Shown: positions 20,111 to 62,279, counted from the stretch's first letter. The stretch is 64,000 bases of DNA from an uncultured Bacteroidota bacterium (GCA_963697545.1 CAVOOL010000022.1:12979-76978); one strand, 5' to 3'. The notes: generated by a model not told the origin, from the letters alone. Numbers and translations: made by a program.

Positions 20111-22401
20111 TTATTGTTCATTCTGATCGGTTCCTGTTTCCCGGGCACTTTCCTGCTGACCTGCCCTGGTTTCTTTCGATCCGTGGCCTTTCTCCACGCT
20201 GTCCTTCAACTCTTTGGCCGTTTCCTTCGCGGGGACGTTCATCTCTTTGCCCTTCCGGCTTCGGCAACAATATTTTTCTGGACAACTTGAATTTACCGGT
20301 TTTTGGATCAGTGCCGGTCAATTTCACTTTTACCTTATCACCTTCGTTTAAAACACCTTCCAGGGTTTCCAAACGCTTCCAGCTTACTTCAGAAATATGC
20401 AACAAACCTTGTTTACCCGGCAAAAATTCAACAAATGCACCATAAGGCATAATGGATTTTACAACGGCTTCGTATTCATCACCAACAGTTGGCACCGCCA
20501 CAATTCCTTTCACCCAGTTGTGCGCCTTGTCTACTTCTTCTTTATCTGTACCAAAGATGCTAACTTCACCCATGTTGTTCTTTTCTTCAATATTGATGGT
20601 AGTACCGGTTTCACGTTGAATTTCCTGGATCACTTTACCACCAGGCCCGATCACCGCGCCAATAAATTCACGGTCAATAAACATTTTCACCATTCTTGGT
20701 GCATGTGGTTTCACATCCGGTCTGGCCTCTGGCTATGCAATTATACATCGCATCCAGAATATGCAATCTTCCGCGACGTGCCTGCTCCAGTGCCTGGCGC
20801 ATCACTTCCATGCTTAAACCATCTACTTTAATATCCATTTGGATACCGCAGATACCATCACGGGTACCGGTTACTTTAAAATCCATATCACCCAGATGAT
20901 CTTCATCACCCAGGATATCGGTCAGTACAGCAAACTTATCCATCTTTGGAGATCAAGACCCATCGCTACACCACCAACGTGTTTTGGAATAGGAACACCT
21001 GCATCCATTAATGCCAAGTGAACCGGCACAAACCGTAGCCATGGAAGAAGAACCATTTGATTCAAGGATATCACTCACTACACGAACTGTATAAGCATAA
21101 TCACCACTTGGCATCATTTGCTTTAGAGAACGCTTCGCCAGGTTACCATGACCTACTTCGCGGCGGCCCGGACCTCTTAAAAATTTTACCTCACCGGTTG
21201 AAAATGGAGGGAAATTATAGTGTAAAATAGAATTTGGAATAATCTGATTTAGCAGCACTTTCAACCAGCAATTCATCTAAAGGAGTACCCAAGGTAACTG
21301 TTGTAAGTGATTGTGTTTCACCTCTTGTGAACAATGCAGCACCATGTGGAGTAGGAAGTACATCTACTTCCATATCCAGTGGACGAACATCTTCCAGACC
21401 TCTTCCATCCAAGCGGATCTTGTCATTTAGGATCATATCCCGAACGACATGATACTGCAGATCGCCAAAATAATTTTTTACCAGTTTTTTAATGTCATCC
21501 GCTATTTCTTCACCTTCAGGAAGATTGGCTTCCTTGGTCAGAGTTTGCTATGATTTCTTCTATAGATTGCATTATATGCTTCTTTGCGTGCAGCTTTTTG
21601 CAGGTTGGCTCTTGAAAATGTCAGCCATTTTATTCTGTAGCCGAGTTCATTCTACCCTTTTCTCCAATAGTCTCATTTGCTTCAGGTTTTGGATAGTCTC
21701 TTTTTCGTAATACACCTACCATATCTCTCAATTCCTGCTGTGCCTTTATCTGAACACGAATGGCATCATGAGCAACTTCCAATGCTTCAATAAGGTCTTC
21801 TTCACTGCATTCCTTTGCTTCGCCTTCCACCATCATAATGTTCTTTTCGGTGGCGGCAATGATAAAATCCATATCTGACTTTTCCATTTCGCTACGGGTC
21901 GGGTTGATTATGAACTGACCATCAATCCGACTAACCCTTACTTCAGAAATAATTTCCTGGATGGGAATGTTAGAAACCGCCAGCGCAGCGGAAGCAGCAA
22001 GACAAGCCATCGCATCGGGCATGATTTCCGATCGGAAGAAATAAGCGTAACAATTACCTGCACTTCGCAGAAATAATCTTCAGGGAAAAGCGGACGTAAG
22101 AGCTCTGTCAATCAGGCGGGAGGTCAATATTTCACAATCGTTGAGCCTTCCTTCTCTTTTAAAGAAAGAACCCGGAATACGACCGGCAGAAGCAAATTTT
22201 TCCATGTAATCTACGCTTAATGGAAAAAAGTCCTGTCCTTCTTTTGGTTCTTCTGTGGCTACTAACGGTAGCTAAAAGAATACAGTTGCCCATTTTTACG
22301 GTAACTGAGCCATCGGCCTGGCGGGCAAGGCGACCGGTTTCCATGGTCACTTCGCGGCCATCGCCTATATCAAATGTTTTACTGAATTTTTGTGATAACA
22401 T
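20111..22401 (-). CDS. pnp: Polynucleotide phosphorylase, at least six frameshifts
   Basis: [53 protein letters not shown] (IGPGGK) and S1 domains across fragments; downstream of rpsO. Confidence 0.95.
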
Positions 22402-22891: not shown

Positions 22892-22963
22892 TTTATGAAC
22901 CCGGCAAGAATTACTTTGGCTTCTTCTGCTCGAAGCTGACTACGTTGCGTCGCACTCTTGTAC
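22892..22963 (-). repeat. GTACAAGAGTGCGACGCAAC-family repeat
   Basis: Exact 20-mer at 22944-22963 (minus) plus a tail ending GTTCATAAA. Confidence 0.85.
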
Positions 22964-23057
22964 GCTTTGTTCTAAACTCAGCATAACAGCGAGCTTTCAA
23001 TAAAGTATAAAAGAGGAATTGGACGCCGGCAAAAGCCCGCCGGATTAAATTTGCCGG

Positions 23058-25684: not shown

Positions 25685-25922
25685 TTATTCATAATTGTAA
25701 TATTACTATGCAAAAAAAATGTATTAGTGAGACTAAAATTCTAAGACTTGCTTGCACAATCTGAATAGCCTTACAGAACGTATAAGAGTGCGACGCAAAA
25801 AGATGAAGTAGCAATACTAGCTCAGTACTAAAAATTAATATTCAGAACTAAAAAATGTTTGAGACGGAAATAAACTAAGCCACCTAAGTCCTAAGTCGGT
25901 CCCCTTTAGGGGGACAGGGGGA
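25624..25922. mobile_element. MITE-like element of about 300 bp with 30-bp inverted ends and an internal AAGAGTGCGACGCAA repeat
   Basis: TCCCCCTGTCCCCCTAAAGGGGA..GACTTAG at 25624-25653 and inverted at 25891-25922; repeat at 25780-25833; no transposase. Confidence 0.65.
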
Positions 25923-36995: not shown

Positions 36996-37035
36996 AGAAA
37001 GTATGTAACAAGCATCGTCTCTTTGTTCATCGTCT

Positions 37036-37372
37036 GTTGCGTCGCACTCTTGTACGTTCGGTAATGCTAATGGGCAAGAGAAAATGAACCACAGCGAACA
37101 CAGAGGAGCACAGAGATTTAAAACATGTTCTCTCGCCGTGTTCTCCGTGTCCGCTGTGGTTAAAAATTGGCTACCAAACATCCATAACAACCTTTGCTAA
37201 GGGTAAGACATTCCATTTCTTCAAGAAATGGAATGTCTCTTTTAAAATTTCTGTGATCTCTGTGTACACCTCCGTGGCTCTCTGTGGGCCAAAAAAGATG
37301 AATAGAATTGTTGCAGTTGAAGAGTGCGACGCAACGAAAGCTAAATAGCAGCCATGCAGCTTAGTTCATAAA
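37036..37372. repeat. Composite palindromic repeat island
   Basis: Outward-facing AAGAGTGCGACGCAAC copies at 37036-37055 and 37316-37335; ACCACAG/CTGTGGT hairpin at 37087-37161; perfect 15-bp stem at 37206-37238. Confidence 0.85.
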
Positions 37373-37400
37373 TTCCTAACTTGCCCCTCAAATTTTATAA

Positions 37401-59735: not shown

Positions 59736-60656
59736 ATGCTGGTTCACCGGACGATTGAGAATTTACCACCGTTTAGAAATGCTGTGATCACAATTGGCAC
59801 ATTCGACGGCGTGCACGAAGGACATAAAAAAATCATTGCTGCGCTGATCGCTGAGGCAAAAACCATTAATGGCGAGTCGGTGATCATTACATTTGATCCG
59901 CATCCCCGTAAGATCGTTGAGCCGGACAAGCCGCTGCAATTGATCAACACGCTGGAGGAAAAAACAGAATTGCTTGCCAAAACAGGAATTGATCATCTGG
60001 TTATTGTCCCCTTTACTCCCGGCTTTGCCGAACAGTCAGCCGAACAATACATAAAGGACTTTCTCATTGATAATTTTCACCCGGCCACCATTATCATTGG
60101 CTACGATCATCATTTTGGTAAGGGAAGAAAAGGAAATTACAAATTGCTGGAAGAAAAAGCTCCTGTTTTTAATTATACACTGCTGGAAATACCAAAACAT
60201 ATCCTGGATGAAATTGGCGTAAGTTCTACCAAGATCAGGAATGCCTTGCTGGCAAGTGATATTGAAACGGCTAACAAACTTTTGGGTTATGATTTCTTTT
60301 TTGAAGGAAAAGTGGTGGAAGGCGACAAGTTAGGCCGGCAATTGGGTTATCCTACGGCTAACCTGGAATATACCGATAAGGAAAAAATTCATTTGGGCCA
60401 TGGTGTGTATGCCGTGTATGTTGAGATCAATGGCGTTGTAAAAAAAGGAATGCTAAGCATTGGCAACCGGCCCACACTGCTTCATTCCGATGAAAAAATA
60501 GAGGTGAATATTTTTGATTGGGACGAAGAAATTTATGGACAAACGCTTAGGGTGATTGTAAAAAAATACTTACGCGGGCAGGAGAAATATGATTCCCTTG
60601 AGGAATTGATCCGGCAATTGCATAAGGATAAGGAAGACAGTTTGTCCTGTTTGTAA
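59736..60656 (+). CDS. ribF: Bifunctional riboflavin kinase/FAD synthetase
   Basis: GTFDGVHEGH, FDPHP, GYDHHFG, VSSTKIR, GRQLGYPTAN and RPT motifs. Confidence 0.97.
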   Translation: MLVHRTIENLPPFRNAVITIGTFDGVHEGHKKIIAALIAEAKTINGESVIITFDPHPRKIVEPDKPLQLINTLEEKTELLAKTGIDHLVIVPFTPGFAEQSAEQYIKDFLIDNFHPATIIIGYDHHFGKGRKGNYKLLEEKAPVFNYTLLEIPKHILDEIGVSSTKIRNALLASDIETANKLLGYDFFFEGKVVEGDKLGRQLGYPTANLEYTDKEKIHLGHGVYAVYVEINGVVKKGMLSIGNRPTLLHSDEKIEVNIFDWDEEIYGQTLRVIVKKYLRGQEKYDSLEELIRQLHKDKEDSLSCL

Positions 60657-60720
60657 GAAATGATTTGTGCAAGTTTTATAAGCAGGATTCGATAATTTAT
60701 TTTGGCTTCAGCTGATGAAA

Positions 60721-61109
60721 TTTTTGATTACCGGCTGCATGGCTACTATGGAACTTCTGTTGCGCTGCGTCCGGCTAATGACGGATCGCACTCTTGTACT
60801 GTAACAATTCTATGCAACAAGACCTCGGAGGTTTTAGAAACCTCCGAGGTCTTCAGGTTTAGTCCACAGATCCCTCGTGCCTCGGGATGACAAGGTTGAA
60901 GCGATACTGATTTCAATCACTCCAACTATCAGAATAACTGCTAAAAAGATATCGCTGTTTGTCATGCTGACGAAGGAAGCATCTATGGCTAATACAATAA
61001 GGAATATTGCCTGTGGTAGTGCACTTTCAGTGTTGCTGAATAGAAAACCTTGCGTACAAGAGTGCGACGCAACGAAGGTTAAATAGTAGTAACACGGCTT
61101 AGTACAAAA
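60721..61109. repeat. Composite palindromic repeat island
   Basis: Outward-facing CAAGAGTGCGA copies (minus, ending 60799; plus, 61054-61073); hairpin AAGACCTCGGAGGTTT-taga-AACCTCCGAGGTCTT at 60819-60853; GGGATGACA...TGTCATGCTG pair. Confidence 0.85.
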
Positions 61110-61144
61110 TCATACGGCACATTTACTCAAAGTACCGTCCCCAA

Positions 61145-62146
61145 TTAAGCCGCAATCATTTTCACCACCATCTCCTTCAACAGGTCAGCGTCTTCGGTTC
61201 CGGCATCGTTAACGCCAATGTTCCGCAAATTATATTCATGCAAAAGCAGTAATACTTTTTCTATTTCGTGGTGGCTGAATTTCATAGCGGTTTGCACATA
61301 ATCTTTAACAAAAAAGGCATGCACCCCAATGGCGGCGGCCACAGATTTTTCATCCCGTGCCGGAACAGAATAAACCATCAGCACCTTGCTAAAAAAATTA
61401 TACAGCGAAGGAAAGATCAATTGCAGCGGCGCTGCTTTCGGATTAGCCCCGAAGTATTGAATAATGCGAACCGCTTTGTAAAGATCTTTGGCGGCAATAG
61501 CCTGCTGCAATTCAAAAACATTGAACTCTTTGCTGATGCCTACAAAATTTTCAATATCATCTTCCGTAATATTTTTACGGTTCGTAAGGTTCAGCACCAG
61601 TTTATCCACTTCATTATTTAACCGGCTCAGGTCATTGCCAATATGATCGATTAACAGGAACAAAGCTTTGTTGGAAATAGAATAGCCCTTCGATTTTATC
61701 AGTTCACTTGTCCATTCGGGCAGGGCATTATCATACATTTTTTTTGTAGTATATAACACAGCTTTATCCTTAAGGATTTTAGCCAGCTTGGTCCGCCCGT
61801 CAAGCTTTTTATTTTTATAGGCCACAAAAAATAAGGTAGAAGAAAGCGGTTTTTCAATATAGCTTTCCAGCTTATCAATATCCTTCATGCTTTGTGCTTC
61901 TTTAAGGATCACCACCTGCCTTTCAGAGAACATGGGATAACGTTTGCAGGAATTTACAACATCGGTCCAGGCGGCGTCTCTTCCATAAAATACGGTAAGA
62001 TTAAAACCGGCTTCACTTTCTGTTAAAATTTTGTTTTCGGCATAGTGAATTACCTGGTCAATAAAGTATTCTTCCTCTCCTTCCAGCCAATAAACCGGCT
62101 TGAAATTCTGTTTCTTCAAATCATTTATTATCTTTTCGGCGCTCAT
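61145..62146 (-). CDS. holA: DNA polymerase III delta subunit
   Basis: PVYWLEGEEEYFID, FNLTVFYG, YPMFSERQVVILKEAQ and SKEFNVFELQ motifs; start taken as MSAEK. Confidence 0.93.
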   Translation of the reverse strand: MSAEKIINDLKKQNFKPVYWLEGEEEYFIDQVIHYAENKILTESEAGFNLTVFYGRDAAWTDVVNSCKRYPMFSERQVVILKEAQSMKDIDKLESYIEKPLSSTLFFVAYKNKKLDGRTKLAKILKDKAVLYTTKKMYDNALPEWTSELIKSKGYSISNKALFLLIDHIGNDLSRLNNEVDKLVLNLTNRKNITEDDIENFVGISKEFNVFELQQAIAAKDLYKAVRIIQYFGANPKAAPLQLIFPSLYNFFSKVLMVYSVPARDEKSVAAAIGVHAFFVKDYVQTAMKFSHHEIEKVLLLLHEYNLRNIGVNDAGTEDADLLKEMVVKMIAA

Positions 62147-62180
62147 AGTATAAAGGCTTAAAAATGGCTCAATTTTTTTC

Positions 62181-62195
62181 TGGCACGGTTTTCGA
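62181..62195 (+). promoter_or_regulatory. sigma54-like promoter
   Basis: TGGCAC-ggttt-TCGA upstream of the 62280 ORF. Confidence 0.4.
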
Positions 62196-62279
62196 ACAAG
62201 GTGCCTCAAACTCAAAAATAAGTTTTCGACCTAACCAATAAAAATCAAATATCGTTTAACTCAAAACCCCCTTTCAACG

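Follow-up and report, generated by a model that had tools for sequence, protein, structure and literature searches.

Bacterial interspersed mosaic elements (BIMEs) were reportedly described by Gilson et al. in 1991 as structures built from REP, or palindromic, units in Enterobacteria. The units of BIMEs are REP hairpins that are bound by IHF, gyrase or Pol I. Composed of such REP/palindromic units, the BIMEs of Enterobacteria (PMC2817692) offer a first point of comparison for the locus reported here, a repeat island, referred to as island 2, in a Flavisolibacter-like genome. Both are intergenic mosaics in which a conserved unit is found alternating or inverted and is separated by a few other short motifs, and in both, singlets and doublets coexist in hundreds of copies, often between convergent genes. 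Unlike REPs, hairpins of 20-40 nt that carry a GTAG/CGTC tag (PMC3733652), the unit found here is ~85 nt long and non-palindromic. The two systems also differ in that the internal motifs found here are independent palindromic repeat families, there is no link to RAYTs and the host belongs to the Bacteroidota.

The REPIN-RAYT systems of Pseudomonas and Enterobacteria (PMC3116915, PMC3337134) provide a second comparison, sharing with the present family inverted doublets, an abundance of decayed or solo copies, long-term persistence within a lineage and absence from some relatives. However, the doublet arms examined here are only ~60% alike and have no conserved hairpin, the units do not flank RAYT genes, several unit-rich genomes have no RAYT gene at all, and the copies show no clustering about a master sequence (nearest neighbor ~74%). 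A third group comprises modular or nested MITEs, such as Correia in Neisseria, ERIC/IRU in Enterobacteria and BOX in Streptococcus pneumoniae (PMC3184786, PMC10969869). Like these, the elements described here are non-coding, 150-450 bp long and bounded by terminal inverted repeats, show presence/absence polymorphism between relatives and have modular interiors (compare BOX A-Bn-C), and MITEs, too, often lack a known transposase. In contrast to MITEs, no parent IS was found and no target-site duplication is visible at ends that are not exactly definable, the ~85-nt terminal repeats combine a single invariant core with diverged sequence elsewhere, solo "ends" are more numerous than complete elements (120 vs 38 pairs), and the distribution is family-wide and includes carriage by phages.

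Island 2 is an ordinary member of an interspersed repeat family of the REP/BIME/MITE type. The reading that we prefer, with a probability of about 0.6, is that the island is an inserted non-coding composite in which palindromic cargo is nested within a head-to-head doublet, that it descends as a whole unit and that the core of its arms may be recognized in trans. Neither the core sequence in a relevant context nor a comparable Chitinophagaceae repeat was found in the literature, and the unit family is apparently undescribed.

Architecture of Island 2

The window, i.e., the whole 64,000-nt stretch of DNA that was analyzed, lies in a genome designated G000. Island 2 occupies window positions 60717-61114, a 398-nt non-coding block in the 488-nt gap between the convergent genes ribF and holA. 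On its left, ribF (59736-60656, plus strand), taken from the ORF list, encodes a bifunctional FAD synthetase/riboflavin kinase (Pfam FAD_syn, 7.6e-47; Flavokinase, 2.1e-39), and 61 nt separate its stop codon from the start of the island. On its right, holA (61145-62215, minus strand) encodes the delta subunit of DNA polymerase III (Pfam DNA_pol3_delta, 3.9e-14; DNA_pol3_delta_C, 9.3e-8).

The island is bracketed by two arms, each consisting of one ~85-nt unit. The left arm (60717-60811, minus strand; nhmmer match C22:73694-73789) is of an "alpha" subtype with the inner end ...GAATTGTTACAGTAC and was aligned with 103 other units and with the arms of the related composites termed class D below. 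It is longer than a plain unit owing to a 21-nt hairpin insert (TCCGTCATTAGCCGGACGCAG on the unit strand) at 60765-60785 (minus strand), which the sequence and the catalogue of core variants place at the center of the core palindrome TGCG-A-CGCA. The right arm (61032-61112, plus strand), of a "beta" subtype (GCTGAATAG...CCTTGCGTACAAGAGTGCGACGCAAC...TAGTACAAAA), was identified with nhmmer (57.8 bits) and by alignments. A preliminary description of the locus had reported a minus and then a plus copy of the bracketing repeat, and the 11-mer CAAGAGTGCGA, the core of each arm, is indeed found by sequence match at 60786-60796 (minus strand) and 61057-61067 (plus strand); the separation given there, about 290 bp, was approximate, the measured distance being 271 bp from start to start. 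At up to one mismatch, CAAGAGTGCGA occurs six times in the window, against 0.82 expected, a count that was reached in 0 of 100 shuffles. The likeness of the two arms extends beyond the 11-mer, over 38 nt at 74% complementarity and, further out, over 22 nt at 77%.

Between the arms, the cargo consists of palindromic modules. Module 1 (60819-60853), described earlier as a near-perfect hairpin, pairs perfectly over 16 bp around a 3-nt loop, AAGACCTCGGAGGTTT-tag-AAACCTCCGAGGTCTT. Module 2 is split into two halves, which the sequence and the class-D alignment define as CCACAGATCCCTCGTGCCTCGGGATGACAA at 60864-60893 (plus strand), with an internal ATCCC/GGGAT hairpin, and a diverged inverted copy, TTGTCATGCTGACGAAGGAAGCATCTATGG, at 60959-60988 (minus strand); in the other class-D copies, this right half reads TGTCATCCCGAGGCACGAGGGATCTGTGG. 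The motifs singled out previously within these halves, AGATCCCTCGTGCCTCGGGATGACA at 60868-60892 and TGTCATGCTGACGAAGGAAGCATCT at 60960-60984, are both present, and together they form a 30-nt inverted repeat that is 73% complementary. According to the same alignment, the spacer between the halves (60894-60958) is poorly conserved, and a segment specific to class D, ACAATAAGGAATATTGCC...GTAGTGCA..., at 60993-61031 is conserved in all six class-D composites. Island 2 encodes no protein, and a shared reading frame is absent among the aligned class-D copies, which are disrupted by indels.

The ~85-Nucleotide Unit

The unit with the CAAGAGTGCGA core is present in 196 copies in the 3.05-Mb Flavisolibacter-like genome (22 contigs). 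The catalogue was compiled with a profile built from copies in the genome, which retrieved 156 units, and with a refined profile, which retrieved 196. The consensus can be written as tGCTgAATAGaaTT....GTACAAGAGTGCGACGCAAC.gAAGCtt.ATAG.AG......GCyGGtwACAwAA, or in outline as GCTGAATAG...GTACAAGAGTGCGACGCAAC...AAGC..ATAG...GCYGGTWACAWAA. By crude ORF calls, 185 of the 196 units lie outside called ORFs. They are found upstream or downstream of genes in either orientation, and their orientation relative to the neighboring gene is random (89 same vs 96 opposite). Beyond the outer end of the unit, the G content is mildly low in both gene contexts (0.14-0.17 vs 0.20), and no Bacteroidota promoter box (TTG/TAnnTTTG) was seen by eye on either strand of the unit.

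Within this genome, the core of 11-20 nt is nearly invariant, with an identity of 0.78, a value pulled down by insert variants, against 0.555 in the periphery; part of this conservation is an effect of ascertainment, since copies were retrieved via the core. The median nearest-neighbor identity among units is 0.74, and near-identical recent copies are absent. Together with a periphery that is only 55.5% identical, this value indicates that there have been no recent bursts. As judged from their sequences, such old and diverged copies would fit long persistence or a host function at least as well as active transposition.

The core itself has dyad symmetry. The palindrome TGCG-A-CGCA is found in 101 units, and a variant, GTG-A-CAC, in 30; in the variant, symmetry is kept by paired C>T and G>A changes, and intermediates are almost nil. 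An inserted hairpin of 14-21 nt (e.g., TCCGCCGGTAGTCGGACGCAG or TCCGAAGCTTCGGA) interrupts the core palindrome exactly at its center in 27 of the 196 units, among them the left arm of island 2. At a small scale, these inserts mirror the nesting of palindrome within palindrome seen in whole islands. The symmetry weakly suggests that a small stem or dyad at the core may have some role, the pattern amounting to essentially one covariation event. Across 43 units from five genomes, RNAalifold gave -0.41 kcal/mol and only a 3-bp mini-stem, TGC-GAC-GCA, i.e., no conserved pairing, and a mutual-information scan of 104 units from this genome detected no Watson-Crick covariation. A closing stem between the 5' and 3' ends of the unit, suspected by eye, was supported by neither method.

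Head-to-Head Pairing of Units

The arrangement of neighboring units follows a strict rule. All 38 neighbor pairs less than 500 bp apart are minus-plus, that is, head to head with the GCTGAATAG ends inward (P ~ 1e-23, assuming four equally likely orientations), and the same rule holds for 7 of 7 pairs in three other genera. Core-to-core spacing ranges from 125 to 345 bp (median 177), with the main mass at 125-230 bp and a second group of 10 pairs at 262-345 bp that includes island 2 at 271 bp. Whole elements with paired arms, which are imperfectly inverted and ~85 nt long each, measure 237-450 bp. This uniform orientation and confined spacing make the pair arrangement strongly non-random. The preliminary description had proposed a genome-wide survey of pairs and anticipated a peak of spacing near 260-300 bp; both orientation and spacing proved non-random, and the single peak did not appear.

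The two arms of one element are otherwise no more similar than arms taken from different elements. Identity between the left and right arms of an element is 0.60, against a background of 0.61-0.62, which indicates that pairing between the arms is not a conserved feature of the family.

Gain and Retention of Elements among Relatives

Comparison with related genomes shows that island 2 is an addition to its site. In 10 congeners, orthologues of holA adjoin ribF in the same convergent arrangement, separated by a spacer of 10-70 nt that contains no unit, in place of the 488 nt found here; the island was therefore gained in this lineage. Metagenomic contigs with ~94% identity extend from ribF to within the left arm of island 2, which implies that near relatives carry it. 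The site of a second island in the window, island 1, upstream of panB, is likewise empty in 11 congeners. At that site, the closest congener, G002, has what appears to be a degenerate 3' half of a unit. A search of metagenome contigs for excision or empty-site joints was discarded, as the listed joints were cross-matches between repeat copies in short, repeat-ridden contigs. Among 31 pairs, no direct repeat was consistently present in the outer flanks, which are A/T-rich, and the relatives are too diverged to fix exact ends.

Some sites, on the other hand, are occupied in more than one species. A solo unit at G000 C6:48301 is shared with G015 at an orthologous site, and the doublet at G000 C11:54958-55228 is shared with G001, where the arms align and the cargo is unalignable; the left arm of this doublet is about 80% alike as estimated by eye, not computed. 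Two such retentions across species could reflect purifying selection, which would favor a role in the host.

Within the genus, 15 of 18 congeners contain the core, and copy numbers per genome run from 0 to about 140. In a survey of the Chitinophagaceae that used one genome per genus, and in which a reversed-pattern control gave 0-2 matches, it was present in 47 of 81 genera; 17 of these had 20 copies or more, the highest count being about 490. The core was absent from all 12 genomes that represented other families of the order. The relatives of the window bear the names Flavisolibacter, Huijunlia and Paraflavisolibacter, and the unit consensus is essentially identical in four genera. No KOPS-like replication-strand polarity was apparent, in that no strand switch was seen by eye among the listed positions on the complete G015 chromosome.

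The units are also found in phages. The exact core 20-mer occurs in seven IMG/VR phage contigs, and the two contigs that were checked encode terminase, portal, capsid, sheath and tube proteins and have units between the structural genes in both orientations. These units are located at L156 4618-4693 and 7606-7702 and at L152 3926 and 7543, where they fill the spacers between cement/Gp37, tail tube or portal genes and the neighboring genes, abutting the upstream stop and the downstream start.

These observations bear on the main rival reading, which holds that each unit is a BIME-like site for a conserved chromosomal protein, such as a nucleoid-associated protein, a topoisomerase or a regulator, and is maintained by selection in the host; doublets would then mark boundaries between transcription units, and their cargo would be incidental. 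Such a site would explain why the 11-20-nt core stays invariant across four genera as the remainder drifts, why the copies are old with no recent bursts and why orthologous copies are retained between species whose flanking proteins are 65-81% identical. It would also fit the strictly intergenic position of the units, 57-84 nt off ORF ends, and their presence between the structural genes of phages of the family. However, a site serving the host would not be expected to vary in copy number as widely as the unit does (0 to about 490 across genera, 0 to about 140 inside the genus), to be lacking in three congeners and 34 sampled genera, or to take a random orientation with respect to neighboring genes. 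In addition, both islands of the window are lineage-specific gains at spacers that are tight in all relatives examined. We therefore consider a host-maintained binding site unlikely, albeit the alternative to be taken most seriously.

Nested Cargo and Descent of the Composites

The cargo of the 38 pairs falls into classes of 21, 7, 6, 2, 1 and 1 members. Island 2 belongs to class D, with six copies, and island 1 to the class with 21 members. Island 1 (37000-37374) has the same minus-plus bracket, and its cargo consists of CACAGAG-type repeats and a GACATTCC...GGAATGTC hairpin followed by a run of T. The earlier impression of two islands with a common bracket and differing contents is thus borne out by their assignment to separate cargo classes.

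Members of class D share one internal order, namely arm, 16-bp hairpin, ATCCC...GGGAT module, variable spacer, inverted module, class-specific segment and arm, and the copies that were aligned, five of the six, match from end to end. The arms follow their cargo: arms of the same class and the same side are 0.68 identical, those of opposite sides 0.61, and none of 2000 permutations reached this difference. Arm subtype thus tracks both cargo class and side, which implies that the arm-cargo-arm composites descend as whole units. The modules are also concentrated near the units. The family of the 16-bp hairpin has 23 loci in this genome, 16 of them within 400 bp of a unit, and for the cargo modules the proportion of copies no more than 400 bp from a unit is 43-100%, depending on the module, while such zones make up ~6% of the genome. 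A further 18 single arms have cargo-like sequence on their inner side.

Outside this genome, the association loosens. Most of the loci examined in other species have the class-D modules or the 16-bp hairpin without arms, and G015, with about 140 units, has none of the class-D cargo. In the genus G095, empty doublets were found in which the arms abut, with gaps of -6 to 23 nt between profile matches. They are located at L160 5078-5241, L160 10241-10410 and L177 19399-19537. The empty doublet is the simplest form of the element, and none was seen in the window's own genome. As for the direction of nesting, the cargo may enter doublets, or the units may land beside hairpins.

The proposal that paired units carry or attract other miniature elements therefore needs qualification: the contents are palindromic families that elsewhere occur solo, as proposed, and the co-descent of arm and cargo speaks against arbitrary passengers. 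It also speaks against a pure pile-up, in which a permissive gap would have received arms and cargo as separate insertions of unrelated elements, with no identity as a composite. Such a history would account for cargo modules without arms in other genomes, for the lack of class-D cargo among the many units of G015 and for the different cargo at the doublet orthologous between G000 and G001. Yet the single orientation of all 38 pairs, the concentration of cargo copies within 400 bp of units, the arm subtypes specific to side and class, and the common internal order of the aligned class-D copies would all have to be coincidental, and we regard a pile-up as very unlikely.

A further suggestion, that the ATCCC...GGGAT modules are of a type that flanks GIY-YIG nuclease genes, was not borne out in this genome, where none of the 18 module copies lies within 600 bp of a called ORF matching GIY-YIG. 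A single small GIY-YIG gene of ~85 aa (MYKVYVLYSGKYNKIYIGYTGNLEERL...) is located outside the window at G000 C21:34600-35080 and is not among the neighbors of the 18 module copies. It lies between two copies of a tRNA 3' end (GGAGGTTCGATCCCTCCCTTCGCAACA) and looks inserted into, or as though it duplicates, the end of a tRNA gene.

Possible Mobility of the Elements

With respect to mobility, the elements have the traits of MITEs in being small and non-coding, having terminal inverted repeats and showing presence/absence polymorphism at orthologous sites. No autonomous element or transposase with these arms was found, and the inspected minus-plus pairs 0.5-4 kb apart in G000, G015, G095 and G086 enclose ordinary or orphan genes; nor was any other partner protein for the units identified. 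In the window, solo units at 22908-22991 (minus strand) and 25762-25845 (plus strand) stand 2.8 kb apart. A transposon bounded by these units, 22950(-)/25783(+), was considered and rejected, as the 2.8 kb between them contain three ordinary-looking ORFs and no transposase-like one. Near the first of these units, the gene for polynucleotide phosphorylase (window 21630-22401, minus strand) seems to be split into an 80-aa N-terminal ORF and a 130-aa ORF, possibly through a frameshift or an assembly error, or because the gene is a pseudogene. In G015, minus-plus arms 560-890 bp apart at L109 535-1262 and L110 562-1610 enclose single orphan ORFs of ~110 and 147-237 aa with no Pfam match, which may be protein-coding cargo or a coincidence.

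A true REPIN-RAYT system would provide a mechanism of transposition, the arms being REPs and the doublet a REPIN that one of the genome's Y1 (IS200-like/RAYT) transposases would move in the form of a single-stranded hairpin. The inverted doublets and common singlets recall REPIN populations, and the term "REPIN-like", applied to the islands earlier, is apt as far as this inverted-doublet architecture goes; it does not extend to a conserved hairpin, co-variation of the arms or flanking by RAYT genes. This genome has three or four Y1_Tnp genes, three of them clear, but no unit lies within 3 kb of any of them. One RAYT-like Y1 gene, at G000 C7:112370-113190 outside the window, is flanked by its own REP, AATCCCGAAGGGATGTTATTACTATAGAA, in two direct and two inverted copies; this REP, of which there are about ten in the genome, is unrelated to the ~85-nt unit. 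Similarly, no core was found within ~2 kb of 12 Y1 loci fetched from seven high-copy genomes. Conversely, several genomes that are 99-100% complete contain 22-68 copies of the unit and no Y1_Tnp gene, namely G007 (50 copies), G071 (68), G073 (43), G077 (30) and G111 (22).

Across the 81 genera, Y1 genes and copy number show a weak positive association (Spearman 0.35; Fisher P = 0.046); genome size and the overall load of mobile elements are probable confounders. Linkage to a RAYT was rejected on the basis of the unit-free flanks of Y1 genes and of the Y1-free, unit-rich genomes. As the unit also has no REP-type hairpin and likeness between the arms of a doublet is limited to about 60%, movement by a RAYT is highly improbable.

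The 398-nt block folds as a single long nested hairpin (-80 kcal/mol with DNA parameters; z = -10.1 vs shuffles), a trivial outcome of nested inverted repeats. At the gathering threshold, Rfam matches in the window are limited to tRNA; in 60650-61150, the best match is His_leader, with an E-value of 0.14 and a score well below its gathering score, and none is convincing at E <= 1. No terminator-like site was found in 60500-61300, and the one promoter-like site, fewer than in shuffles, is outside island 2. There is no evidence that island 2 is a structured RNA. That the nested hairpin is a bidirectional terminator or an RNA stabilizer, or that the units are small RNA genes, is scarcely plausible: the strong fold, the position of the island between convergent genes and, in another cargo class, the GACATTCC...GGAATGTC hairpin followed by Ts would agree with such a signal, but conserved pairing is absent from both sets of aligned units, complementarity between arms is not maintained, and units stand in either orientation around genes and in both orientations inside a phage structural operon.

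A Model for the Composite Elements

Under the preferred reading of island 2 as an inserted composite, the basic element would be a head-to-head doublet of ~85-nt units, the center of which becomes filled by other small palindromic families, and the nested forms would then propagate as wholes. We infer that the core could be recognized by a trans-acting DNA-binding or DNA-cutting protein, other than a RAYT, that moves or maintains the units, probably acting on pairs. Recognition by such a protein would account for the constancy of the core, for the single orientation of pairs and for the turnover of copies. The dyad center of the doublet may, moreover, be a preferred site for the insertion or growth of palindromes, and carriage by phages could provide for horizontal spread of the units.

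A more far-reaching version can be put forward tentatively. Here, the units would be the oriented sites of a family-wide, non-RAYT protein that acts on head-to-head pairs, the dyad center would attract palindromes, and the system, borne by phages, would build and remodel much of the intergenic DNA throughout the family. In this full form the proposal is a doubtful one, though it deserves consideration.

Implications for Chitinophagaceae Genomes

Most of what has been worked out about repeats of the REP/BIME/REPIN and MITE types comes from Proteobacteria, Neisseria and streptococci, and the present family adds a high-copy example from the Bacteroidota. It shares the architecture of REP, BIME and MITE repeats and departs from their defining features in that its unit is not a hairpin, a RAYT is lacking and target duplications are not visible. 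Its composites also show several independent palindromic families nested in an orderly fashion inside one bracket. In practical terms, the elements inflate intergenic spacers and create spurious small ORFs, so that masking is advisable for annotators, and they break short-read assemblies, in which contigs end in arms. If a specific protein does recognize the core, it would represent a new player in the organization or mobility of Chitinophagaceae genomes.
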